DNA of 38,663 bases, from positions 1 through 38,663 of IMG/VR virus record IMGVR_UViG_3300032330_001921. One strand, written 5' to 3'. Made by a program: the position numbers and the translations under genes. Shown one piece after another: positions 21,770 to 33,316 of this stretch (within the stretch, counting starts at the first letter, position 1; the number at the start of each line of letters is the position of its first letter). Below the pieces are notes generated by a model. The model was not told the origin of the DNA, did not search any database, and worked only from the letters and a program-made list of their open reading frames with translations. The stretch is from a virus. Its lineage: Duplodnaviria > Caudoviricetes.

Positions 21770-21871
21770 GGGTTTTTATAAGATTTTCATAGGGGTAAAT
21801 ACAAAATAATAATAACTAAACTCCAAATATTAATCAAAATTGTACCTAATATAAGCAATAAAACAAAAATG

Positions 21872-22122
21872 TATTAGTTTTTCTCCGGGGTAAATAAGAA
21901 TAAACAAAGAAATTTTGCCCGAGACGGGGCTAAATAACCATTTTGTTGTATTTTTCAGAAATAAAATATGCAAAAATGCCAATGTTTATTAGGTTTTCTC
22001 CGGGTAAAATAGAATTTAATTTTAATTCTTATAGTTTCCTATATAGAGAATAATAACAATTTTGCGCGAATTTTGAGCAAATAGACTTAAATAAAGAAAT
22101 TTTGTGCGATTTTGAGCAAATA
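21872..22122. repeat. Imperfect direct repeats in an AT-rich non-coding tract
   Basis: TATTAG.TTTTCTCCGGG(G)TAAA.(T)AGAAT at 21872 and 21987; AATTTTG.GCGA(A)TTTTGAGCAAATA at 22058 and 22098; related AAAGAAATTTTGCCCGA at 21906. Confidence 0.7.
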
Positions 22123-22132
22123 AAGAACAAAT

Positions 22133-22264
22133 ATGGTAATAATAATAATGGGAGTTATAGTGTTAATTAGTAGTTTCGCTGCGAGTAATTCTTTGGGAAT
22201 GGTTTGTGGATTAATTATGGTGATGGGAGGGTGTTTCTTCGGGGACAATAATTATGAAAAATAA
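22133..22264 (+). CDS. Putative two-helix membrane peptide (43 aa)
   Basis: MVIIIMGVIVLISSFAASNSLGMVCGLIMVMGGCFFGDNNYEK. Confidence 0.4.
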   Translation: MVIIIMGVIVLISSFAASNSLGMVCGLIMVMGGCFFGDNNYEK

Positions 22265-22267
22265 ATC

Positions 22268-22295
22268 TTGCAGTCGGGGCAAAGTCTGGTAAGGT
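22268..22295 (+). promoter_or_regulatory. sigma70-like promoter (16-bp spacer, extended -10)
   Basis: TTGCAG-N16-TAAGGT, 7 nt before GTG 22303 (leaderless). Confidence 0.6.
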
Positions 22296-22302
22296 TTGAC
22301 TC

Positions 22303-22932
22303 GTGATTCTTGCAACTGCTCTTGAAATTGTGGGTGGCCTGTCCAGCCCGTCGAAAATGCCTTGCCATTCTTGGTCAACTCCTGCCAAGTATTGCAAGAC
22401 AGGAAAGAAACTTGCTCAGGTTTCCGGCTCTATCTGCGCAGATTGCTATGCAGCAAAGGGTTTCTATCGTATGCCCAACGTCAAAAACTGTTTGGAAAAG
22501 CGATTCCAGTCTCTTTCCAATCCTGAATGGGTAAAGGCAATGACTTTGTCAATCTCAGGGTCGGAAGGGTCGGGCTTTTTTCGTTGGCATGACTCTGGAG
22601 ACATCCAATCTCTTGAGCATTTGGAAATGATTGTTCAAGTAGCTAAAAACCTACCTACAATAAAGTTCTGGATACCAACAAGAGAATATTCTTTTGTTTC
22701 TGATTACTTAAAGAAACACGGGGCTTTTCCTGATAACTTAACTGTTCGTTTATCTGCTTACATGGTAGACGGTCAGCCTCCGGTTGCCTTAGCTAATCGC
22801 TTGGGCTTAACTACTTCAGGAGTCGCCACCACTGGGTTTAATTGTCCAGCTAATACGCAAGGCAACAAATGTTTATCTTGCCGCGCTTGCTGGGACAAGA
22901 ATGTTAACAATATCAACTACAAAAAACACTAA
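22303..22932 (+). CDS. GP88-family protein (Cys-rich, radical-SAM-like)
   Basis: 'GGLSSPSKMPCHSWSTPAKYC..G.KLA...SICADCYA', 'FFRWHDSGDIQS', 'FWIPTRE', 'NLTVRLSA', 'CPA...C.SCRACWD'. Confidence 0.85.
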   Translation: MILATALEIVGGLSSPSKMPCHSWSTPAKYCKTGKKLAQVSGSICADCYAAKGFYRMPNVKNCLEKRFQSLSNPEWVKAMTLSISGSEGSGFFRWHDSGDIQSLEHLEMIVQVAKNLPTIKFWIPTREYSFVSDYLKKHGAFPDNLTVRLSAYMVDGQPPVALANRLGLTTSGVATTGFNCPANTQGNKCLSCRACWDKNVNNINYKKH

Positions 22933-22940
22933 ATCTTTTT

Positions 22941-23081
22941 TAACTAAACCAGCAACGATTCAATAACAAAGAGAGCAAATTGCACTGGATCAAGTAGTTA
23001 TTGATAAAGAAATTGCATAAGAAACAAGCTCAGGTAAGAGATTGCTCCCGGTAGGCCACAGCCTCTGTTTCAGTTTAGTTA
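22941..23081 (+). ncRNA. Putative multi-stem structured RNA
   Basis: TAACTAAAC/GTTTAGTTA closing stem, TCAATAAC/GTTATTGA, GAAACA/TGTTTC, and a crossing GAGCAA/TTGCTC. Confidence 0.4.
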
Positions 23082-23094
23082 TTCTTTTCTATTT

Positions 23095-23154
23095 ATGGCT
23101 CCTTATTTGATTTTTATTTTTCTTGTTTGGCTTATATTTGAATTGCTAGAATAA
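23095..23154 (+). CDS. Putative membrane micropeptide (19 aa)
   Basis: MAPYLIFIFLVWLIFELLE. Confidence 0.35.
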   Translation: MAPYLIFIFLVWLIFELLE

Positions 23155-23196
23155 TAATAAAAGAGAACAATAATAATAAAAAGCTTTAATAATAAT

Positions 23197-23301
23197 ATGC
23201 AAATAGATCCTGAACACTTAGAAGGTTTTTGGAATAAGTTTATTATTTGTTTGACTATAGTAGTTTGGTTAATGTTTTTTATGGGCCGAAAAAGTTCTTG
23301 A
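23197..23301 (+). CDS. Putative membrane micropeptide (34 aa)
   Basis: MQIDPEHLEGFWNKFIICLTIVVWLMFFMGRKSS. Confidence 0.45.
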   Translation: MQIDPEHLEGFWNKFIICLTIVVWLMFFMGRKSS

Positions 23302-23322
23302 AATACCAGCCCCACCCATGTC

Positions 23323-23526
23323 ATGCTGAGTCCCGCAATGAGAACCTTAGAGCTAGACCAAAACAAAGACGGGCAATGGAAGTACCGCATCATCGAAACC
23401 ATTGGGAACGAAAGGAGAACCTTAGTTGATTGGGAATGGGGAACTTACGAAGAAAAGGAAACAATCGAACAAGCACAAGAGCGATTTGGTAGTTTTGATA
23501 AGATTTACATTTTAGATTGGATTTAA
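23323..23526 (+). CDS. Hypothetical protein
   Basis: 67-aa ORF; the start could be the internal ATG (MRTLEL). Confidence 0.65.
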   Translation: MLSPAMRTLELDQNKDGQWKYRIIETIGNERRTLVDWEWGTYEEKETIEQAQERFGSFDKIYILDWI

Positions 23527-23535
23527 TTTAGGAAA

Positions 23536-23562
23536 ACCCTTGGGGTCAGGGTCAAAAGCCCC
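23536..23562 (+). ncRNA. Compact H-type pseudoknot, copy 1
   Basis: S1 ACCCT/AGGGT, S2 GGGGT/GCCCC, loop 3 CAAAA. Confidence 0.6.
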
Positions 23563-23572
23563 GCATAACAAT

Positions 23573-23761
23573 ATGAAAATGGAAATTGACACATCAGATT
23601 TGACTATTCCTTTGAGGTACTACAGGGGATGGGACATTGAGTTCACTACTAGAACAGAAAAGTTCAACTCTCCTCTTCTTTGTTTGTATGGTTTTTCTTC
23701 TGTAGTGGATTTGGAAAAAGCAATTGACTATGCTCTGGAAAAGCGGGCAAAAGCAAAATAA
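23573..23761 (+). CDS. Hypothetical protein
   Basis: Start moved to ATG 23573, just after pseudoknot copy 1. Confidence 0.65.
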   Translation: MKMEIDTSDLTIPLRYYRGWDIEFTTRTEKFNSPLLCLYGFSSVVDLEKAIDYALEKRAKAK

Positions 23762-23768
23762 GAAAACA

Positions 23769-23794
23769 ACCTTGGGGTCAGGTCAAAAAGCCCC
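23769..23794 (+). ncRNA. Compact H-type pseudoknot, copy 2
   Basis: S1 ACCT/AGGT, S2 GGGGT/GCCCC, loop 3 CAAAAA. Confidence 0.6.
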
Positions 23795-23803
23795 GTTTAT
23801 TAA

Positions 23804-24025
23804 ATGAAAATCTTACATAAAAATACTACTTTTGAAACAAATACCATAATTTTGTTAAATGATATCAAATATCTGATTACTACCAGAGGCGAATTATTCC
23901 CAGATAATAAAAAAAGTAAGGCAATTACTTTTGACTTTAAGAGACTAGATGGAGTTAAGCTAACAAATAAAGAAGAAAAGATTGGCGACAAAATCTTTGA
24001 TGAAATAATAAAGGATCAAAAATGA
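23804..24025 (+). CDS. Hypothetical protein
   Basis: 73-aa ORF after pseudoknot copy 2. Confidence 0.6.
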   Translation: MKILHKNTTFETNTIILLNDIKYLITTRGELFPDNKKSKAITFDFKRLDGVKLTNKEEKIGDKIFDEIIKDQK

Positions 24026-24132
24026 TAGTTATTCTTGTAATGGTATTGATTTTTCTAATGATGAATAACAAATAACATTAGAATAATAACCGAATAATAA
24101 TAAATAACTGAAATAATAATAAAGTAAACAAA

Positions 24133-24165
24133 GGGAGCGCGGAGCGTACACCAGCCCGCGCTCCC
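24133..24165. repeat. GC-rich inverted repeat after an AAT tract
   Basis: GGGAGCGCGG-N13-CCGCGCTCCC. Confidence 0.7.
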
Positions 24166-24215
24166 GTGCAAGAGAAAAGCCCAGAAACAGGGCAAAAAAT
24201 TGCATAAAATATTTA

Positions 24216-24243
24216 TTGCAAATCTCAGGAAGTGGGCTAAGGT
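24216..24243 (+). promoter_or_regulatory. sigma70-like promoter (16-bp spacer)
   Basis: TTGCAA-N16-TAAGGT. Confidence 0.6.
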
Positions 24244-24286
24244 AGTGGGGTCGGTGGGAATTAACCCCCTGACTAACCATTGAAAA

Positions 24287-24817
24287 ATGATCGTTGATAA
24301 GATTAGTTCGCAAGCGGGATTGGCTCGCTTCGCGTCATTCACCTACCAGAGCAAAACGACTGGTGAGGTTGCCCGATACACAATCCAGTTGGGTTTCTCA
24401 TACAAGAATTGCTTGGAAAAGAGCAAGCTGGCTTTGGAAATCGAATCTGGTTCACTTAGTGGATTGGATAAGCAAGCGGCGGAAGAATTGCTTAACAGTT
24501 TCACTGCTTCCCTGAATGGGACGCAAGAGAATTACACAAAGGAACACGTTTACGTTGACGTGTCTGATTCGTCTGGCAAAACTGTTCAGGGAATTAAGCG
24601 AAACATTAATGACGGTTCACTTCAGATTTTTGGTTTGCTTCACAGCAAAGTCCAGATTACTCCCCCAACTATCGAAGACAAACCAGTTAAGTCCCGCCCC
24701 CTCACTATTGCCAAAAACAAACTGCGAAAGGATCTCCCTGTGGGTAAGTTTAGGGAATTCGCTTTGGAAAACCTCAATGTAGTTAAACTGAATGGCGAGA
24801 CTTTGGAACTTGCCTAA
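24287..24817 (+). CDS. Hypothetical protein, paralog of 11781..12311
   Basis: Collinear similarity over the full 176 aa. Confidence 0.85.
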   Translation: MIVDKISSQAGLARFASFTYQSKTTGEVARYTIQLGFSYKNCLEKSKLALEIESGSLSGLDKQAAEELLNSFTASLNGTQENYTKEHVYVDVSDSSGKTVQGIKRNINDGSLQIFGLLHSKVQITPPTIEDKPVKSRPLTIAKNKLRKDLPVGKFREFALENLNVVKLNGETLELA

Positions 24818-24829
24818 CGATAACTAAAC

Positions 24830-24853
24830 GGGAGCGGGGCAGTCCCCGCTCCC
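24830..24853 (+). other. Strong intergenic hairpin without a U-tail
   Basis: GGGAGCGGGG-CAGT-CCCCGCTCCC. Confidence 0.65.
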
Positions 24854-24880
24854 TAACTTCAACAATTAACTAAACAAAAA

Positions 24881-25717
24881 ATGAACTATCCTGTCAAAAA
24901 CGCTCTTCGTCAACTGGTTTGCAAAGTCTATGATGCAGCCACCAAAGACAAACAAACAATCACAACTGTTTCACTACCGGGTGATTGCTGGGAGTTTGAG
25001 CATTTTGTTAATGATAATTATAACTTCCGTAAGTCGTTTGGCAATCCAATCAAAAAAATAGATAACCACCTCTTTGAGAGAAACAAAATAATCTTTGATA
25101 CTAATCAAGGAACAGCCAAAGAGTTTACTGATACAGGTATCTTTTATTACTACAATCAGGAAGTTAAGCATAACGATGAAGACTTCTTTCCCACTGAGAG
25201 TGAGTGTGTTTTTACTTGGTTTGATTTCTGCGGCAATCCTAATTTCTTTAATCTGAATTACTGCCATAGCTGGACAGCAAAGCAAACTCACTTACTTACT
25301 TTTAATCTCGCTTGGCGTTGTTCAGATAATATCCCAACAGATATCTTAACTGCCTGTAAATACCAAACCAAACAACAAGCAGTTCTTGATTATCTGCAAA
25401 AGGTTATTGATACAGAATACAAAGAGTTTAGGTATCAGATTGCATTTTCTATTCCTTATGTGTCTAATCACACACCAATGATTCTTATTTGTATAACTAA
25501 TGATATCGGGGTGATTATTGAAGATTATGGTCTCTGCCAGAAAACAGAAAAGCTACCTGCTCCCCCTGCTCTTATTAAAGTTAAAGCAGATAAACAAGAT
25601 ATCTATTCTGATTTACTAAGCGGCATGAGTGACAAAGAGGCTATGGATAAGCATTCGCTTAAGACCATGCAACTAGCGGCGCACAAAGCATGGTTAACTA
25701 TGTGGGGTAAATGGTAG
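24881..25717 (+). CDS. Hypothetical protein, possibly methyltransferase-like fold
   Basis: 278 aa; 'TVSLPG', 'HLFERN' and 'FTWFDFCG' are spaced like Rossmann MTase motifs (weak); C-terminal helical 'LAAHKAWLTM'. Confidence 0.7.
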   Translation: MNYPVKNALRQLVCKVYDAATKDKQTITTVSLPGDCWEFEHFVNDNYNFRKSFGNPIKKIDNHLFERNKIIFDTNQGTAKEFTDTGIFYYYNQEVKHNDEDFFPTESECVFTWFDFCGNPNFFNLNYCHSWTAKQTHLLTFNLAWRCSDNIPTDILTACKYQTKQQAVLDYLQKVIDTEYKEFRYQIAFSIPYVSNHTPMILICITNDIGVIIEDYGLCQKTEKLPAPPALIKVKADKQDIYSDLLSGMSDKEAMDKHSLKTMQLAAHKAWLTMWGKW

Positions 25718-25729
25718 TTTAGTTTAGTT

Positions 25730-25755
25730 TCCTTGGGGTTAGGATAAAAAGCCCC
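25730..25755 (+). ncRNA. Compact H-type pseudoknot, copy 3
   Basis: S1 TCCT/AGGA, S2 GGGGT/GCCCC, loop 3 TAAAAA. Confidence 0.6.
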
Positions 25756-25767
25756 TCTTTTAATAAT

Positions 25768-25929
25768 ATGAATAACTTTTCTCAGATACTCAATAAGCTT
25801 GATGAAGTGGATATCAAATTAGGTTCTATTAATAATAATGAAATAAATGATATCTTGATTGAATTATCTTTTGCTATTGATCTAATAACAGAACAACTTC
25901 AAATATTGAGCAAGAATAATAATAAATAA
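25768..25929 (+). CDS. Hypothetical protein (53 aa, not in ORF track)
   Basis: MNNFSQILNKLDEVDIKLG...; starts 12 nt after pseudoknot copy 3. Confidence 0.45.
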   Translation: MNNFSQILNKLDEVDIKLGSINNNEINDILIELSFAIDLITEQLQILSKNNNK

Positions 25930-26052
25930 AGTAATAATAATAACAGAGGAATAAATAATAAGGCCTAGCCCCGCCAGCCCCGGCCAGCAAACCAGCCAAG
26001 ATAACCAGACAACTAAGGGCAGTCAACTAAGAAAAAAAGCCAGAAAAAGAGA

Positions 26053-26080
26053 TTGAGTTTTATAAGAGATTGGTTATTCT
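26053..26080 (+). promoter_or_regulatory. sigma70-like promoter (16-bp spacer)
   Basis: TTGAGT-N16-TATTCT with an upstream A-tract; predicted +1 at 26087. Confidence 0.55.
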
Positions 26081-26086
26081 GTTGGT

Positions 26087-26176
26087 GTTCTTTGAAATCC
26101 CGTGAGTCGATCCCGCTGCCCCGATTGGGGACCAGCGGGCTGGCATCGTGCTATCGGCAAACGGATTGAAAGGAAC
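26087..26176 (+). ncRNA. Structured 5' leader RNA (three-way junction), copy A
   Basis: Stems GTTCTTT/AAGGAAC, AATC.CGT/ACGGATT, GTCGAT/ATCGGC, CCCGCTG-CCCC/GGGG-CAGCGGG, GGCA/TGCT; covaries with copy B. Confidence 0.75.
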
Positions 26177-26183
26177 GCACACT

Positions 26184-27038
26184 ATGGCAAGAAACACTGT
26201 TCCCCACAATTCCACCTTCGACTTCCCTGTGGCTTTGGAGCCGCTCCACACACAGGACGGCAGGGATTCTGGTTTGTTTGGTACGGTCCGCAGGGACCAG
26301 ACCGGAGTCCGTGTTTTCGGGTCCGCTTCTGAGCGTTACGGTTTGCTTCTCAATTCCACCTTCGTTGAACAGATCGAAGACGGAATTGCCAAAGCTGGCT
26401 TGTCTGGCTTTGAACGGGAAGCTTTCGTATACGATAATGGAGCCCGGTCCGAGTTCCGTTGGACGTTTAAGAATCGGACCATAAAGGTTCCCAAAGTCGG
26501 GGACGATATCGCGTTTCGGATAACTGCCCGAAACAGTTACGACGGCACATGGAAGGCAAGCTTGCTCGATTCTGTTATGCGTTTGGCTTGTTTGAATGGG
26601 GCAATGCGATCTGAAAACGGATTGCTTCTCTCAAAGAAACACACAAGCAAGTTAGACGTTTCGGTAATCGTGGCTGGTTTGGAAACTATGTTGAAACGGT
26701 TTGAAGAATGGGCTTGGGATTTAGACTTGCTGGTTCTCCCTGTGTCGCAGGCTCAGGGAAGCCACATTCTGGCTCACGCTCAGGAAGACGGAGTTATCTC
26801 CGGCAGCGTCAGGGACGGCATTCTAAGCTTTTGGAATGCGCCCAGACGGCAGGAAGACGAAGACCGGACCTTGATCAACCTGTGGAACGCCGGGACGGAA
26901 TACACTACCCACATTCTGGGTAGGGAGCGGAATCAATATTCCCAAACAATCAACGCAAGGTGGACAAACCACATTCTTGGATTGGGAAGGAATAATGAGC
27001 TATTAAGAGAAGCTTCAATTCCAATAATAAACAATTAA
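26184..27038 (+). CDS. DUF932 (LGT_TIGR03299-like) protein, copy A
   Basis: 'GSASERYGLLLN', 'DNGAR', 'VGDDIAFRITARNSYDGT', 'RLACLNG', 'KHTSK', 'LWNAGTEY.TH'. Start moved to ATG 26184. Confidence 0.85.
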   Translation: MARNTVPHNSTFDFPVALEPLHTQDGRDSGLFGTVRRDQTGVRVFGSASERYGLLLNSTFVEQIEDGIAKAGLSGFEREAFVYDNGARSEFRWTFKNRTIKVPKVGDDIAFRITARNSYDGTWKASLLDSVMRLACLNGAMRSENGLLLSKKHTSKLDVSVIVAGLETMLKRFEEWAWDLDLLVLPVSQAQGSHILAHAQEDGVISGSVRDGILSFWNAPRRQEDEDRTLINLWNAGTEYTTHILGRERNQYSQTINARWTNHILGLGRNNELLREASIPIINN

Positions 27039-27042
27039 TCAC

Positions 27043-27076
27043 AGACCGGGGACGATAAATCCCCGGTCTTTTTTTT
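27043..27076 (+). terminator. Intrinsic terminator
   Basis: AGACCGGGGA-N7-TCCCCGGTCT plus T-run. Confidence 0.85.
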
Positions 27077-27081
27077 GTCTA

Positions 27082-27200
27082 TTAATAATAAATAATCAAA
27101 TAATAATAACACCAGAACAAATAATAATACTCGAATAACAAATAATGTCAGAATAATAAACAATAATGAAATAATAATAAATAATAACTAAATAATAATA
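27082..27200 (+). repeat. (AAT)n-rich low-complexity spacer
   Basis: Degenerate AAT/AATA repeats, nearly devoid of G; similar tracts occur after most terminators between 24.0 and 30.7 kb. Confidence 0.8.
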
Positions 27201-27203
27201 GCA

Positions 27204-27246
27204 GGGGCAGAGGGGGCGGGGCAGGGGCAGAGAAGGAGGGGCGGGG
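27204..27246 (+). other. Potential G-quadruplex
   Basis: Six runs of at least 4 G (GGGGCAGAGGGGGCGGGGCAGGGG...GGGGCGGGG). Confidence 0.6.
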
Positions 27247-27294
27247 CTTTCCCAGTTACTTAAAATGGCTCAATTAGTTACCTAAAAAAAAGAC

Positions 27295-27322
27295 TTCCCA
27301 AATCAGGATTCCATGATAATTT
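27295..27322 (+). promoter_or_regulatory. sigma70-like promoter (16-bp spacer, extended -10)
   Basis: TTCCCA-N16-TAATTT with TG; predicted +1 at 27329. Confidence 0.5.
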
Positions 27323-27328
27323 GATCTC

Positions 27329-27417
27329 GTTCTTTGAAATCCCGTTAGCTGATCCCGGTTCCACTTTGTGGAGCGCCGGGTTGGGATTGTCCTATCGGTG
27401 AACGGATTGAAAAGAGC
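27329..27417 (+). ncRNA. Structured 5' leader RNA (three-way junction), copy B
   Basis: GTTCTTT/AAAGAGC, AATC.CGTT/AACGGATT, GCTGAT/ATCGGT, CCCGG-TTCCAC/GTGGAG-CCGGG, GGGA/TCCT. Confidence 0.75.
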
Positions 27418-27425
27418 ATACAACT

Positions 27426-28283
27426 ATGGCTCGTCAAACTGTCCCCCATTCCAGCAACTTCTCGTTCCCGGTCACTCTGGAACCGTTGACCATTGATGGT
27501 CACGACTCCGGGTTTTTCGGAACGGTGCGCCGGGATGAGGGATTCCCCCGAGTTCTCGGGGTTGCGGGTGAGCGTTACGGGTTGCTCCAGAATGGTGACT
27601 TCATTAACCAGATTGAGGAAGGATTTAAGAAAGCCAACCTCAGCGGGTTTGAACGCGAGGTTGCCGTGATGGATCACGGTGCGCGGTGTCAGGCTCAGTG
27701 GACCTTTAAGAACCGCACCATAAAGGTGCGGAAAGTGGGCGATGAAATGGCGTTCCGCGTTACGGCGCGGAACTCCTACGATGGCTCATGGAAGGTCAGC
27801 ATGGTCGACACCATTGAACGCCTCGCCTGTCTCAACGGCGCGGTACGCTCAGAGAAGGGAATCATGCTTCAGGGGAAGCACACTTCCCGGCTCAACGTGG
27901 ACCGTATCGTTGGCGGTTTGGACATTATGCTAAACCGTTTCGAGAAGTGGGCGAGTGACTTGGATCTCATCGTCATGCCCATCGAACAGGCTCAGGGTTC
28001 CCATATCCTGAGTCATGCTCAGGAAGATGGAATCATCTCAGGCTCAACCCGAGACGGTATCCTGAGTTTCTGGAATGCGCCGCGCCGGAAGGAGGATGAG
28101 GAACGCACCGTTTACAACCTCTGGAACGCCGGGACCGAGTTCTTCACTCACGTCCTGAAACGGGAACGGTTCCAGTATGCCGACACCGTGAACGCCGAGT
28201 TCACGGGATGGATGATGGAACTAGGCCGAGATCACGACAGGCTCAGACAGGTCACTAAACCGCTGGAACTAGTGAACAACTAA
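27426..28283 (+). CDS. DUF932 (LGT_TIGR03299-like) protein, copy B
   Basis: Tandem paralog of 26184..27038 with the same motifs. Confidence 0.85.
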   Translation: MARQTVPHSSNFSFPVTLEPLTIDGHDSGFFGTVRRDEGFPRVLGVAGERYGLLQNGDFINQIEEGFKKANLSGFEREVAVMDHGARCQAQWTFKNRTIKVRKVGDEMAFRVTARNSYDGSWKVSMVDTIERLACLNGAVRSEKGIMLQGKHTSRLNVDRIVGGLDIMLNRFEKWASDLDLIVMPIEQAQGSHILSHAQEDGIISGSTRDGILSFWNAPRRKEDEERTVYNLWNAGTEFFTHVLKRERFQYADTVNAEFTGWMMELGRDHDRLRQVTKPLELVNN

Positions 28284-28290
28284 ACAACAA

Positions 28291-28326
28291 AGCCGGGAGC
28301 GTAACAACTCCCGGCTCTTTTCTTTT
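28291..28326 (+). terminator. Intrinsic terminator
   Basis: AGCCGGGAG-N8-CTCCCGGCT plus T-rich tail. Confidence 0.8.
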
Positions 28327-28348
28327 ATTAGTAGGAAGATTTCACTTT

Positions 28349-28411
28349 ATGCTAATATCAATAATTCTTTTGTTAATAATAATCTATTTCATCTTTCGTT
28401 TACTCGAATAA
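28349..28411 (+). CDS. Putative membrane micropeptide (20 aa)
   Basis: MLISIILLLIIIYFIFRLLE. Confidence 0.35.
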   Translation: MLISIILLLIIIYFIFRLLE

Positions 28412-28569
28412 TAATAAATGATCGAATAATAATAAATACAACAATAATAATAATTCTAATAATAATAAATAAAACAAATATCACTAGAAACTCACAAAAA
28501 AGGCTATTCTTATTTACTTTCAGAGACAGAATTAGTTGATAAGGGAAAAAACAATAGCTGAAAAAGAAG

Positions 28570-28598
28570 TTGATTGTTTGGGTTTATTTATTTAAATT
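28570..28598 (+). promoter_or_regulatory. sigma70-like promoter (17-bp spacer)
   Basis: TTGATT-N17-TAAATT, 9 nt before ATG 28608. Confidence 0.5.
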
Positions 28599-28607
28599 GA
28601 TATCGCC

Positions 28608-28817
28608 ATGTATAAAACAACGCCTGAGCAAAGCAAAACCGAAACGGCCCTTGCCAAAAAGGGGTTTCGTTTCTCCAGTTGGCTTCCTTTCTCTCCGGAT
28701 GCCAACAATCAACCGTCTGAGGGAACCGAGCATCTCGGCACCATCGTTATGGTGAAGCGAGCCACTCGGTTCTCCACTGAGTACCGCGAAATCGAGCCTG
28801 ATGGCTCCATCAACTAA
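28608..28817 (+). CDS. Hypothetical early protein
   Basis: GC-rich ORF after a promoter. Confidence 0.75.
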   Translation: MYKTTPEQSKTETALAKKGFRFSSWLPFSPDANNQPSEGTEHLGTIVMVKRATRFSTEYREIEPDGSIN

Positions 28818-29017
28818 TGGCTTGCGAAGACTACCCCTGCTGCGGGCATGAGCCCGGCAGTTGCCCCATCGTCAACGATCAGGGCGAACTCTGTTATCCC
28901 TGCGCCAAATGCGGCTTCCTGATGCCCCCAAAGGCACGGAGCGCGGTTTGCCAGCCGTGCCACTCAAAGTGGCAACGCCAATGGGACGACGACCCTACTG
29001 GTCAAGATAGTGACTGA
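28817..29017 (+). CDS. Cys-rich putative metal-binding protein
   Basis: 'CEDYPCCGH...C', 'CAKC', 'CQPC'; TAATG coupling with the upstream gene. Confidence 0.75.
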   Translation: MACEDYPCCGHEPGSCPIVNDQGELCYPCAKCGFLMPPKARSAVCQPCHSKWQRQWDDDPTGQDSD

Positions 29018-29023
29018 AATACA

Positions 29024-29051
29024 GCCCCCGGTTAACAGCCGGGGGTTTTTT
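29024..29051 (+). terminator. Intrinsic terminator
   Basis: GCCCCCGG-N7-CCGGGGGT plus T-run. Confidence 0.85.
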
Positions 29052-29214
29052 GTTTCTATAAATAATAATAACATTAAATAATAACGTAATAATAAATAAT
29101 AATAAATAAATAATCTAATAATATAGCGCGGCTTCTGGTGGGGCGGGGCTTCTTGTATCTGGTTTAGCTACAGGCGAAGAGACTCCCACTCGAAAAGAAA
29201 ACAAGAAAAAGAGC

Positions 29215-29242
29215 TATCCAAACCAGATAAGTGTGCTAAATT
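29215..29242 (+). promoter_or_regulatory. sigma70-like promoter (extended -10)
   Basis: TATCCA-N16-TAAATT with TG at 29234. Confidence 0.5.
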
Positions 29243-29246
29243 GATT

Positions 29247-29303
29247 GCAGTTCGAGGGCGTTCCTCGAACCGCAGTAAACGAAACGCCGGTAACAAAAAC
29301 ACT
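29247..29303 (+). ncRNA. Conserved structured 5' leader (family 2), copy A
   Basis: GTTCGAGG-GCGTT-CCTCGAAC hairpin then CGCAGTAAAC...CGGTAACA; repeated at 30839. Confidence 0.65.
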
Positions 29304-29549
29304 ATGCAACGCAACGCAGTCAAACTCACTGAGGCCGAGAAAACGGCCTTCTCCGTGGCCCGCGATGCCCTCAACATCGCCGAAGGCGAGCTGACGCAAC
29401 GCATCATGGAGTTCCAGAACACGCTGGACACCATCACCGACGAGGCCGACCAGACCTACTACAAGAACGAGATCGGCAAGGCCCAAGTGAAGCTGGCCGA
29501 GACCATCATCTCCCGTGAGCGCCTCTGGAGCATCCAATTCAAGTTCTAA
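29304..29549 (+). CDS. Hypothetical helical protein, paralog of 30899..31141
   Basis: Start moved to ATG 29304; C-terminal 'AQVKLAETIISRERLWSI'. Confidence 0.8.
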   Translation: MQRNAVKLTEAEKTAFSVARDALNIAEGELTQRIMEFQNTLDTITDEADQTYYKNEIGKAQVKLAETIISRERLWSIQFKF

Positions 29550-29560
29550 ACAGTAAACAG

Positions 29561-29586
29561 GGTGGCCCCTTCGGGGGCCACCTTTT
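29561..29586 (+). terminator. Intrinsic terminator (UUCG tetraloop)
   Basis: GGTGGCCCC-TTCG-GGGGCCACC-TTTT. Confidence 0.85.
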
Positions 29587-29645
29587 GTAATAATATTAAT
29601 AAATAGAACAATAATAATAATAATAATAATAATAATATAAATAAT

Positions 29646-29714
29646 ATGGCAATCTTTCCTATTCTCTTGGGGGTATTTATAATTGCAATGATCTTAGCTA
29701 ACAGAAGAAGATAG
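29646..29714 (+). CDS. Putative membrane micropeptide (22 aa)
   Basis: MAIFPILLGVFIIAMILANRRR. Confidence 0.45.
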   Translation: MAIFPILLGVFIIAMILANRRR

Positions 29715-29739
29715 GTGTTTATTTAACTGATTTATTCTA

Positions 29740-29767
29740 TTGCAAAACGGGCAATCTAAAGTAATCT
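29740..29767 (+). promoter_or_regulatory. sigma70-like promoter (16-bp spacer)
   Basis: TTGCAA-N16-TAATCT, 9 nt before ATG 29777. Confidence 0.6.
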
Positions 29768-29776
29768 AGGAATCGC

Positions 29777-30052
29777 ATGAAGCACTTAACATTATCTCCC
29801 TACCGCGCCGGAATGAAGGTTTGGGTTTCCATCCCTCGCACCGACGACATCGAACATCGCGCTATCGCGGGCATGCTCTTCGCAGAGCGTTCCCAGTACT
29901 ACTGCTGGGGTGAAGAGCAACCCGGCCACCGCATCGGGTTGGAAGCTGTCATTAGAGCCTCAGAGCTTCCGGGATTCTTCCGGGATCTTCAAGATCTCCA
30001 CAAGGTGCGAGACGGTGTTCTAGTATCGTTCCACGCCACCGACTGCCCGTAA
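29777..30052 (+). CDS. Hypothetical early protein
   Basis: GC-rich ORF flanked by promoter and terminator. Confidence 0.75.
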   Translation: MKHLTLSPYRAGMKVWVSIPRTDDIEHRAIAGMLFAERSQYYCWGEEQPGHRIGLEAVIRASELPGFFRDLQDLHKVRDGVLVSFHATDCP

Positions 30053-30068
30053 TACATAAACAACCAAA

Positions 30069-30102
30069 GCCCCTAGGTTAACTCCTAGGGGCATTTTATT
30101 TT
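30069..30102 (+). terminator. Intrinsic terminator
   Basis: GCCCCTAGG-N6-CCTAGGGGC plus T-rich tail. Confidence 0.8.
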
Positions 30103-30143
30103 AAATAATAAAGAATAATAATATCAATATCAATAATAATAAT

Positions 30144-30203
30144 ATGTTCATATTTATAGTTCTATTGTTTATTATCTATGTGATTGCCAAGCTCACAGAC
30201 TAG
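30144..30203 (+). CDS. Putative membrane micropeptide (19 aa)
   Basis: MFIFIVLLFIIYVIAKLTD. Confidence 0.4.
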   Translation: MFIFIVLLFIIYVIAKLTD

Positions 30204-30236
30204 GAAAGCCCACTAAAAGAAAACAAACAAAAGCTC

Positions 30237-30264
30237 TTGTTTATTTAAGATCCTGTAGTAAATT
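30237..30264 (+). promoter_or_regulatory. sigma70-like promoter (16-bp spacer)
   Basis: TTGTTT-N16-TAAATT, followed by a GCAGTTCGGG...CCCGA leader hairpin. Confidence 0.55.
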
Positions 30265-30307
30265 GAATGCAGTTCGGGCCAGTAACCCGACGCTAGAAAG
30301 TCAACCT

Positions 30308-30595
30308 ATGCAATACGTTCAAATCGAAGGCGGGACCATGACAGGTAAGATCATGCACACTGTAGGCGAGTGCAATCTGTGCGCTAAGGAGCGCCTTTCC
30401 GAATTCGTCGACGGGAAAACCCGTATGGGACCGTGGGCGAACATGTGTTTGCCTTGCTTCCGCAAAGTAGGCGTAGGCCTAGGTGTGGGCCGTGGGCAAC
30501 GCTACGCAATGGTCACGGAAGTATCGGGAAGCCTAAGCCTTAAAACCCAAGCGGCACAGGCGCACACGAAAGCGAAAGCCGATTTGTTTATCTAA
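30308..30595 (+). CDS. Small Zn-binding phage protein
   Basis: 'CNLC...FVDGKTRMGPWANMCLPC...GVGLGVGRGQRY' is a recurrent phage family. Start moved to ATG 30308. Confidence 0.8.
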   Translation: MQYVQIEGGTMTGKIMHTVGECNLCAKERLSEFVDGKTRMGPWANMCLPCFRKVGVGLGVGRGQRYAMVTEVSGSLSLKTQAAQAHTKAKADLFI

Positions 30596-30613
30596 AAGCC
30601 CATTTGTCACAAG

Positions 30614-30642
30614 ACCCTCTGTAGTAATACAGGGGGTTTTTT
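30614..30642 (+). terminator. Intrinsic terminator (GNRA loop)
   Basis: ACCCTCTGTA-GTAA-TACAGGGGGT plus T-run. Confidence 0.85.
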
Positions 30643-30714
30643 GTTTTAATAGAATAATAATAGAACAAAGAATAATAATAAAATAATAAATAATAATATA
30701 TATAGTAGTATAGT

Positions 30715-30761
30715 GGTGTAGTGTGTGTGAGCGTGTGTGTGTATGCGGGTGCGCGTGTGTG
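30715..30761. repeat. Alternating purine-pyrimidine (GT/GC)n tract
   Basis: GGTGTAGTGTGTGTGAGCGTGTGTGTGTATGCGGGTGCGCGTGTGTG. Confidence 0.75.
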
Positions 30762-30806
30762 AGAGCTAAGGTGTATTGATACCCAAAAAGAAAAAGGAAA
30801 AAGGGA

Positions 30807-30834
30807 TTGCAAAACAGGTATTCTGTGTTAATTT
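30807..30834 (+). promoter_or_regulatory. sigma70-like promoter (16-bp spacer, extended -10)
   Basis: TTGCAA-N16-TAATTT with TG and an upstream A-tract. Confidence 0.65.
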
Positions 30835-30838
30835 GATT

Positions 30839-30898
30839 GCAGTTCGGGGGCGTTCCCCGGACCGCAGTAAACCAAAACGTCGGTAACACAGTAACACT
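30839..30898 (+). ncRNA. Conserved structured 5' leader (family 2), copy B
   Basis: GTTCGGGG-GCGTT-CCCCGGAC hairpin then CGCAGTAAAC...CGGTAACA. Confidence 0.65.
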
Positions 30899-31141
30899 AT
30901 GTCCAAGTCCAAAACTCCTCAGTCCGTGTTGGACGCGCTTCATGAAGCGCGCAGTGCCTTGTATTCTCAGCAGTTCGAACTGATTCGCAACTGCCAGCGG
31001 ATTCAACGCAGCGTCGACGCCGCCAAGGAAGCGGGCAAGGAAGTCGACTCCTTCGATATCAACTTGCTGGCCGAAGCAAAGGCCAAGCTGGCCGACACTA
31101 TCCTTGCGCGGGAAACGCTGTTCGATATCCCCAGCCTTTAA
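30899..31141 (+). CDS. Hypothetical helical protein, paralog of 29304..29549
   Basis: C-terminal 'AKAKLADTILARETLFDI'. Confidence 0.8.
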   Translation: MSKSKTPQSVLDALHEARSALYSQQFELIRNCQRIQRSVDAAKEAGKEVDSFDINLLAEAKAKLADTILARETLFDIPSL

Positions 31142-31151
31142 ACCACACACT

Positions 31152-31177
31152 GCGGGGCCCTTCGGGGCCCCGCTCTT
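31152..31177 (+). terminator. UUCG hairpin, weak terminator or stabiliser
   Basis: GCGGGGCCC-TTCG-GGGCCCCGC with a poor U-tail. Confidence 0.6.
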
Positions 31178-31183
31178 AACCTC

Positions 31184-31444
31184 ATGATCACCGTCCATAT
31201 TCACGAAGTCACCGGAAGCAATCCGGTTTTCTCAACCGGAACCATCCTTGCCGTTGCCAATCGGCAAAGCAACGCTCCGGGGTTGACGTACAAAGGCACA
31301 CGGCAAGTCACTCATGAGCTTTTCCCGCTTGCCGGGATCATCATGAGCGGTTCATTCGCTTCCTTCGATGGGTGGGAGCAATTCGAAGCCGCAATTGAGG
31401 AGGACGAATTTAAAGCGGCTTGCCGCCACCCCGCTGTGGCGTAA
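31184..31444 (+). CDS. Hypothetical early protein
   Basis: GC-rich 86-aa ORF. Confidence 0.7.
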   Translation: MITVHIHEVTGSNPVFSTGTILAVANRQSNAPGLTYKGTRQVTHELFPLAGIIMSGSFASFDGWEQFEAAIEEDEFKAACRHPAVA

Positions 31445-31819: not shown

Positions 31820-32512
31820 ATGAATAAACTATTCAATATTGCACTATTAATTGCAACCCTAAATGTTTCGGTTTTTGCCGAAAATGACACAATTACAGCC
31901 GCGATTGACGCGGGCTACACCTCAAGCTACCTAGTGAACAACCTTGTCCAAGCTAAGGACGCTGCTGTTGCTGGAGTAACCCTTGGCAAGACCTATGCGG
32001 GAGTGGATTTCTCCCTTAAGGGTCAGTATCTTCCAATTGCCTCTGGCACGGATTCTAGTCACTGGGGCGTTGGCCTTGGCAAGTCATTCAAGTTAGTTGA
32101 CGAGTTGACGGTTCGTGCTGATGCTGGCGCGACTCGCCACCAGACGGGGCAAGCTCTAATTCAAAACTATACTGAGGTTAATGCCCGAGTGGCCCTTGAG
32201 AACAAGTTCTTTGTTCCTTATGTTAAGGGTATCTATAATGTTGAGCTAGAGCAATCCGGCGCAACGATTGGCCTTGAGAAGCGCTTTGAGTTCTTTGATT
32301 TTAATATCACCCCAGCACTAGAGTATACTTTGCTAACTGATGCTAAGACTTATGCTGCTAAGCTTGCTGTATCTCGTAACATTTGGCGCAATTTGAGTGC
32401 ATTTGCTGAAGTAGATTATATCAAGAATGATTTCTCTACTAGTAATATCAATTTTGCTCTAAAGGAATTTGATGGTGCAGTTGGTACTGGCGGCATTCGT
32501 TGGTCCTTCTAA
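31820..32512 (+). CDS. Outer-membrane beta-barrel (porin-like) protein
   Basis: Sec signal peptide ending 'VFA', alternating amphipathic beta-strands, C-terminal beta-signal 'GGIRWSF'. Confidence 0.75.
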   Translation: MNKLFNIALLIATLNVSVFAENDTITAAIDAGYTSSYLVNNLVQAKDAAVAGVTLGKTYAGVDFSLKGQYLPIASGTDSSHWGVGLGKSFKLVDELTVRADAGATRHQTGQALIQNYTEVNARVALENKFFVPYVKGIYNVELEQSGATIGLEKRFEFFDFNITPALEYTLLTDAKTYAAKLAVSRNIWRNLSAFAEVDYIKNDFSTSNINFALKEFDGAVGTGGIRWSF

Positions 32513-32587: not shown

Positions 32588-33316
32588 ATGTCAAAACAAG
32601 ATAAGTCACCAAAAATCCTGCAACGAGACAAGTTTAAGGAAGAGATTAAGATCCGAGAGCTTAATTGGACAGATAAACAAAAAGCCTTTATTGATATAGC
32701 CCTGAATAAGGATGTAAAGATGATGTTTATTAGCGGCCCCGCCGGATCGTCCAAGACATTATTGAGCATCTACTGCGCCCTTCAATTGATTAAAGACAAG
32801 AGAGTTAGTGATATTATGTATATTAGATCTCCAGTAGAGAGCAGTGATAGCAAAATTGGCTTCCTCCCCGGAGATGCAGATGAAAAGCTAAAGTATTATA
32901 ATCTTCCTTTTGCTGATAAGCTAGAAGAGCTACTATCTAAACAATATATTGAAGCTCTTAATAACCAAGGCCGACTTCAGAGCCATCCTTTGTCATTTGT
33001 GCGCGGCATGAGTTGGAATTGCAAGGCTATTATTCTTGATGAAGCTCAGAATTGCACTCAAAAAGAAATAGTAACCCTAATGACAAGAGTTGGAGAGTTT
33101 AGTAAGTGTTTTATTCTTGCTGATCCTGACCAATCTGACTTGGCTTATGGTAAGTCTGGTGGTTTTGAGAAGCTTCAAGCTATCTTTAACGACGAAGAGA
33201 GCAAAGAAAAGGGGCTTTATTCATTCCACTTTACTGAAGACGACATTAAGCGAAGCGATCTAGTTAAATTTATAGTAAAGAAACTAAAGGCTTTTTCTCC
33301 AGCCAGTCGCGTATAA
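32588..33316 (+). CDS. phoH: PhoH-family ATPase
   Basis: 'GPAGSSKT', 'RSPVE...IGFLPG', 'FVRGMSW', 'IILDEAQN', 'TRVGE', 'DPDQSDL', 'DIKRSDLV'. Confidence 0.95.
   Translation: MSKQDKSPKILQRDKFKEEIKIRELNWTDKQKAFIDIALNKDVKMMFISGPAGSSKTLLSIYCALQLIKDKRVSDIMYIRSPVESSDSKIGFLPGDADEKLKYYNLPFADKLEELLSKQYIEALNNQGRLQSHPLSFVRGMSWNCKAIILDEAQNCTQKEIVTLMTRVGEFSKCFILADPDQSDLAYGKSGGFEKLQAIFNDEESKEKGLYSFHFTEDDIKRSDLVKFIVKKLKAFSPASRV

Follow-up and report, generated by a model that had tools for sequence, protein, structure and literature searches.

A probable structured leader RNA in front of DUF932 genes in a clade of large T4-like phages

Known leader RNAs and the two DUF932 units

In phage T4, the proteins gp32 and gp43 repress their own structured leaders (outlined in PMC3014915 and PMC535899). 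The leaders described here resemble these gene 32 and gene 43 operators, as far as those outlines go, in that a structured leader lies by the start codon in a T4-like phage, structure is kept while sequence diverges, and autogenous repression is a candidate mode of control; as expected of an operator, structured RNA overlaps or adjoins the initiation region. However, no pseudoknot or short hairpin of the kind outlined for T4 is involved: the entire leader of 77-122 nt folds back on itself, starting at the predicted +1, and no nucleic-acid-binding activity is known for the DUF932 protein encoded downstream. In the case of T4 e, soc, 49 and I-TevI, a later promoter yields a shorter, translatable transcript. 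The initiation sites of these genes are sequestered (summarised in PMC3014915), and a helix over the ribosome-binding region is a feature shared with the DUF932 leaders; according to that summary, the T4 helices form on longer early transcripts, whereas the DUF932 leader helix would form on the primary transcript. No second promoter was seen inside the DUF932 leader element. The 5'-terminal stem-loops of E. coli ompA and papA, as sketched in PMC3997798, are similar in that the predicted first nucleotide is paired, leaving no 5' overhang. Compared with that sketch of these stabilisers, the DUF932 leader is much larger, often branched, and overlaps the initiation region.

DUF932 proteins are common in phages and mobile elements, in the latter often accompanied by the radC gene, and we know of no fold or function for the family. 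A link to phage defence, without a mechanism, is suggested in the summary of 10.1101/2025.06.20.660599. The radC RNA motif (RF01754) is, in the brief account of PMC2864571, likewise a candidate cis-acting structured RNA; unlike the case of that motif, Rfam gave no match to our element at any threshold tried, and the host elements differ. By analogy with these systems, the leader would most likely work like the T4 operators and initiation-hiding helices combined with a 5'-terminal stabiliser, and it most likely falls into no catalogued family.

The window, i.e. the whole stretch of 38,663 nt that was analysed, is part of the genome of a T4-like phage (rIIA, rIIB and terminase are present) and also codes for sigma-70-like factors, RuvB and PhoH. 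Two consecutive units share the layout of promoter, leader, DUF932 gene and terminator-like hairpin:

26053..26080, + strand: predicted sigma70-type promoter of paralog 1, from sequence (-35 TTGAGT, 16-nt spacer, -10 TATTCT at 26075-26080)
26087..26176, + strand: leader RNA 1, 90 nt (basal stem P1, GA internal loop, P2, three-way junction, long arm P3, side hairpin P4)
26184..27038, + strand: DUF932 paralog 1, 284 aa (open reading frame; Pfam PF06067, E 1.9e-7)
27043..27069, + strand: intrinsic-terminator-like hairpin ending unit 1
27295..27322, + strand: predicted promoter of paralog 2 (-35 TTCCCA, 16-nt spacer, -10 TAATTT at 27317-27322)
27329..27417, + strand: leader RNA 2, 89 nt, with the architecture of leader RNA 1
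27426..28283, + strand: DUF932 paralog 2, 285 aa (Pfam PF06067, E 3.1e-9; protein model with pLDDT 93)
28291..28316, + strand: intrinsic-terminator-like hairpin ending unit 2

In both leaders the first G is the seventh base past the -10-like hexamer, and the stems stop 7 and 8 nt before the ATG at 26184 and 27426, respectively, as the sequence-only reading had it. Its coordinates and pairings, the latter kept although the two copies diverge in sequence, were likewise borne out, and both folds beat their shuffles: leader 1 reaches -41.4 kcal/mol (z -4.33) and leader 2 -37.6 kcal/mol (z -4.44), with none of 200 shuffles as good in either case. The GAAATCCCGT/ACGGATTGAAA core, said to be invariant, is so between the two window copies but not in relatives (GACATCC, GAGATTC; GGATAGA, GAATCGA, GGATCAG). 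The 3' strand of leader 1 contains GAAAGGA. No terminator-like site was found within either leader, the next ones coming after the stop codons. An independent small RNA was rejected, since there is no terminator of its own between element and gene.

That the element is not a named RNA family agrees with Rfam 15, which gives no window match at the gathering threshold. With E up to 10, one chance match overlaps leader 1 (snoTBR6, E 8, 16.9 bits, opposite strand); with E up to 1, none of the matches in eight relatives was convincing. Titles and abstract openings of the literature on DUF932, TIGR03299, DUF945 in phages and phage leader motifs revealed no such RNA.

The two proteins are 66% identical, and both exceed the curated Pfam cut-off of 23 bits (31.6 and 37.4 bits). 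For the protein model, Foldseek found no PDB match, nor was a solved relative found by sequence, and the best viral fold matches include DUF932/TIGR03299 entries. A VIA fold search gave a best Z of 6.5, with the C-terminal domain of T4 MotA (Z 5.5) among unrelated rows and no nucleic-acid-binding assignment. Residues C135, N137, H152, G191 and P219 are invariant in 67 homologs; the pI is about 6.4 and the net charge near neutral.

Conservation and spread of the leader

Relatives were collected from 2 viral and 34 metagenome loci. Without three genes whose start is cut off, 55 gene starts are available, including the two of the window. A GTTC-starting fold that closes near the ATG was found at all 55 starts of this one DUF932 clade (54 by an automatic rule, one, L146, by hand), the GTTC start being part of the search rule and hence not independent. 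The 32 distinct leaders among them are 77-122 nt long, with z-scores from -1.5 to -6.0 for the 31 that were scored. The promoters of the clade resemble canonical sigma70 sites: a hexamer of the form xAxxxT lies at -12 to -7 in 31 of the 32 distinct promoters and at -13 to -8 in the remaining one, and the leader stem begins at the predicted +1 in all 32, where the start is predicted from the -10 spacing. The other end is fixed as well, with 7-11 nt between leader and AUG in 31 of 31 scored leaders. As a separate observation, the best -35/-10 spacer is 16 nt, the usual one being 17 nt, in 26 of 31 scorable distinct promoters.

Between these ends, a basal stem of 6-8 bp and the internal loops are constant, and most leaders have a short distal hairpin with a GNNU or UUN loop. 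The three-way junction proposed earlier is present in the window copies but is not a defining feature, because six of the 32 distinct leaders are unbranched; the six that lack the side hairpin (L144, L151, L145, L152, L154 and L155) all belong to the paralog-1 lineage. Junction linkers differ between close and distant leaders. The 5' strand is the most constant part: its columns 1-4, 7-9, 11-12 and 15-16 are invariant in 25 of 25 close leaders, whereas their 3' partners drift between A and G.

A model (R1) built from the 25 close leaders matched 47 of the 55 gene starts; its only other matches in 200 kb were ten weak ones on the opposite strand at the very places already matched, and within the window it found just the two copies. 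Eight distant gene starts were missed, with best overlapping scores of 9.5 and 8.4 bits (E 4.1 and 8.5), and the homology of these eight leaders to the close set therefore rests on position, GTTC start, fold and the protein tree.

Pairing was assessed in several ways. In the 25 close leaders, 94.2% of 840 cells are paired and 13 of 34 pairs show two-sided change, with none of 500 shuffles as high on both counts; controls slid along the alignment had 33-53% of cells paired. The count of further pair types in the same leaders was no better than in shuffles (388 of 500). When the tree was taken into account, 15-18 branch-level co-substitutions were found at paired columns, where chance would give about 3.3 (0 of 500 for every one of 20 reconstructions), with 9-13 clean compensatory events at 8-10 pairs; one-sided changes kept the pair in 32-34 cases and broke it in 16-19. 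Covariation, claimed earlier from two copies, thus stands after tree correction, at about 16 paired co-substitutions vs 3 expected, with the structure drawn from these very sequences and the tree from their alignment, and with helix replacement accounting for some distal-arm events. The three distant leaders of 117-122 nt show two-sided change in 12 of 28 pairs of a structure that was predicted on the same three-sequence alignment.

The folded molecule is likely the mRNA, as indicated by a G-U bias (108 G-U vs 18 A-C cells) and by the better fold of the + strand in 31 of 32 distinct leaders. DNA folding is much weaker, with a mean of -17 vs -39 kcal/mol. What lies at the DUF932 start is a real, uncatalogued structured leader RNA, which most likely acts in cis and represents, in a clade of large T4-like phages, an RNA family backed by covariation.

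In a protein tree of 39 chosen rows, obtained by a quick method with long branches flagged, the leader-bearing genes form one group (SH-aLRT 100) that splits into paralog-1 and paralog-2 lineages. As both lineages within this group carry the leader, it is likely older than the duplication. Outside the clade the picture is different. An alignment search gave 211 viral loci with distant homologs, of which 80 were kept (27-41% identity to its first row), and the leader model had no match within about 3 kb of these 80 DUF932 genes. Among 36 distinct confident starts of distant genes, a promoter-like site lies within 60 nt of 29, 13 appear to be leaderless, and the upstream z is -2.5 or less in two; for all 59 distinct upstream regions, ten reach this z, mostly where starts are uncertain. 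The leader accordingly appears to be a clade-limited addition, and the idea of an obligate RNA partner of DUF932 falls with these absences. At two distant DUF932 loci (L198, L206) there is a minimal GTTCT-GAGGG-AGAAC hairpin. A loose DNA pattern scan of viral contigs was too unspecific, with DUF932 at none of 120 loci, and a tighter pattern gave four loci, two of them already known and two without DUF932 or model match. No match was obtained by tblastn against annotated phages, and a search of genome contigs likewise gave none.

The two paralogs' leaders are not equally independent along their length. In the 5' basal arm, paralogs that share a genome resemble each other more closely (0.878) than is seen between genomes (0.833; 0 of 5000 permutations with 11 distinct pairs, related pairs that the test takes as independent), and base +10 is the same in both paralogs at 18 of 19 loci that hold both. 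No such within-genome effect was seen for the 3' arm and the distal part (4203 and 1589 of 5000 permutations). The suggestion that the two variants are paralog-specific can therefore be upheld for the distal arms only. Either gene conversion or a shared reader may have homogenised the 5' arm. Three variable C-terminal positions of paralog 1 separate the A from the C variant at +10, which we read as chance, and no convincing trans antisense partner of the 5' arm was found in the window, itself part of the genome. Mosaicism was observed as well: between L142 (1670-1759), L143 (1672-1761) and the window, promoter-leader modules and DUF932 coding regions differ in their nearest relatives, and in L142 paralog 1 is 96% identical to the window protein, yet its leader and promoter have diverged.

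Overlap with translation initiation and possible roles

The 3' strand of the basal stem spans about -8 to -20 relative to the start codon and is on average 82-83% paired in the window copies. Mean unpaired probability is 0.17-0.18 at -20 to -9, while spacer and AUG are largely open (0.68-0.79). Opening positions -20 to +3 costs 6.9-18.6 kcal/mol in 31 leaders vs a median of 4.75 kcal/mol for 48 other window genes, several of which have a high cost too (up to 22.6 kcal/mol). The basal stem alone has a median opening cost of 7.4 kcal/mol, an amount that could perhaps be overcome by a binding ribosome or by a protein. Shine-Dalgarno-like pairing of -4 kcal/mol or better occurs at 19 of 26 distinct leader ends vs 9 of 51 other starts in the window, the scoring being done with an assumed anti-SD tail; seven of the 26, including L146, L152 and L154, have no such run. 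Several distant DUF932 genes have short unstructured leaders in which a GAAAG(G)A-like run is left open.

We tentatively favour the view that the 5'-terminal leader shields the mRNA and, as an operator bound by a protein, gates its translation; DUF932 itself would be the first candidate for that protein. The first G would be the transcription start; the inner arms would fold first, and the weak 7-bp basal stem would close as the initiation region emerges. A ribosome could then initiate only once the basal stem and the next helix are open, a balance that might be shifted by a protein reading the nearly invariant 5' arm or the internal loops. Such recognition would tune both paralogs together. 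Several points tell against this operator. The purine-rich 3' strand may simply be the complement of GTTCTTT; window genes are mostly SD-free, so that hiding a Shine-Dalgarno sequence may be irrelevant in the host; GTTC hairpins start other early units, and such 5' folds may stabilise transcripts as a general habit; and the common 5' arm could stem from gene conversion, not selection. The RNA data consist of contigs from four of six listed runs, and those of run X1 also cover spacers and terminators, so that neither transcription nor transcript ends are shown by them.

The stabilising habit just mentioned leads to the alternative that survives best, a constitutive, ligand-free 5' cap that blocks 5'-end-dependent decay and fixes the translation rate, elaborated from a simple GTTC hairpin. 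The predicted folds pair the first base, and RppH of B. subtilis requires at least two unpaired 5' nucleotides, as stated in the summary of PMC3997798. Simple GTTC or GTC hairpins begin other early units, L198 and L206 have the minimal form, and junction and side hairpin are dispensable. However, a hairpin of 15-20 nt would be enough for this purpose, yet an irregular, covarying structure of 77-122 nt is kept in both paralog lineages, and many distant DUF932 genes do without any leader. We regard a pure cap as somewhat unlikely.

The operator reading has an extension that we consider fairly unlikely, though of wider consequence: DUF932 proteins may be structured-RNA-binding proteins, with the leader mimicking their real host target and the paralogs reading the shared 5' arm in joint self-regulation. 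The leader would then be a ready-made ligand revealing the family's role. Whichever reading applies, it provides a handle on DUF932 in the shape of two proteins, two leaders and their natural variants. Binding of DUF932 to the leader would be the first molecular activity of the family; failing that, the leader would still illustrate in compact form how an early gene with often leaderless relatives is tuned by a phage whose host seems to be SD-poor.

RNase III cleavage is known from the early sites of phage T7. RNase III also cuts structured leaders in the autoregulation of rnc and pnp (mentioned in PMC3997798), and in the DUF932 leaders it or another nuclease might cut the irregular basal helix of about 22 bp, free the initiation region and release a stable RNA of 70-110 nt. 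Every leader retains a long helix, nearly unbroken apart from small internal loops, that would suit this, but the interruption of the helix by two internal loops and a bulge makes processing quite improbable, and no processed ends were seen in the RNA contigs. Another proposal is that DUF932 uses the leader as its working ligand (decoy, scaffold or cofactor RNA, made in 1:1 linkage with the protein) and that control is not its main role. A single origin together with the DUF932 clade (SH-aLRT 100) would fit, but the leader is absent within about 3 kb of the 80 distant genes, no terminator frees it, and leaders and coding regions recombine freely, as in L142 with its much changed leader in front of a 96% identical paralog 1; we find this very doubtful.

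The usual initiation footprint of the ribosome extends from about -20 to +15. A translation enhancer, in which a rigid domain would attach to the ribosome in an SD-poor host and offer it the spacer of 7-11 nt and the AUG much like a capped leaderless message, would account for the narrow spacer range and the mostly open spacer and AUG (0.68-0.79), and would suit an SD-poor genome with leaderless starts in many relatives. No positive sign of ribosome contact was seen, however, and the stem overlaps the footprint, so that an enhancer is highly improbable.

A metabolite riboswitch, an RNA thermometer or a single-stranded DNA signal can hardly be credited, given the lack of an Rfam match, of a conserved alternative fold and of a conserved junction. 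The riboswitch-like behaviour once considered is not supported by the data: forcing the initiation region open in 31 leaders revealed no shared alternative helix, the window leaders contain no terminator, and no ligand-binding junction nucleotides are conserved, the side hairpin being absent in 6 of 32 leaders and the linkers differing. A U-rich anti-SD strand with wobble pairs, as present here, is thermometer-like, but the basal stem is predicted to be more than 99% closed from 4 to 37 °C. The occurrence of DUF932 genes in mobile elements would be in line with a DNA signal, against which the G-U bias and the weaker DNA folding favour sense RNA. Single-stranded DNA promoters of the Frpo type have a template-strand fold, with -35 and -10 inside a hairpin pointing at the gene; this type was rejected, as the sense strand is favoured and the promoter lies upstream of the fold.

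The surrounding early region and the host

The DUF932 units belong to a row of short units at about 22200-31200, in most of which an AT-rich spacer and a promoter-like site come with one or two genes and a hairpin that resembles a terminator; this train probably represents the early region. ARAGORN found no tRNA or tmRNA genes in the window. Most genes of the window phage lack a Shine-Dalgarno sequence, with SD-like pairing of -4 kcal/mol or better at 9 of 51 window starts vs 24% of 500 random positions, scored with an assumed anti-SD tail that may not be that of the host. Bacteroidota and some Verrucomicrobia are among the SD-scarce groups named in the summary of PMC10783764. The PhoH gene (32588-33316) has a 97% identical homolog (L243) on a 2.8-kb contig of a Crocinitomicaceae MAG, possibly mis-binned phage DNA or a weak host hint. 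At 31820-32512 (+), a phage protein resembles TorF-family outer-membrane porins in its language-model features.

Early units are set apart by long AAT-rich spacers (21800-30710), often with a G-rich patch next to them. Those at 22303, 28608 and 29777 (+) look leaderless or nearly so, with the start codon 7-9 nt past a -10-like hexamer, and simple GTC or GTTC 5' hairpins occur at the predicted start of others (24249-24274 and 30272-30289, +). A 31-nt intergenic hairpin-like repeat, family D14, is present in three copies between small genes (23533-23563, 23765-23795 and 25726-25756, +). A second conserved leader type lies at the predicted +1 of two further early units (29250-29303 and 30842-30898, +), for which the window search of Rfam gave no match. 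The loop of its GTTC hairpin, (G/A)CGTT, can pair with AACG(C/T) within a second hairpin, possibly as a kissing-loop pseudoknot. Across eight aligned copies, G-C, G-U and A-U all occur as the loop pair, and in the first stem pairing is mostly retained despite changes in sequence.
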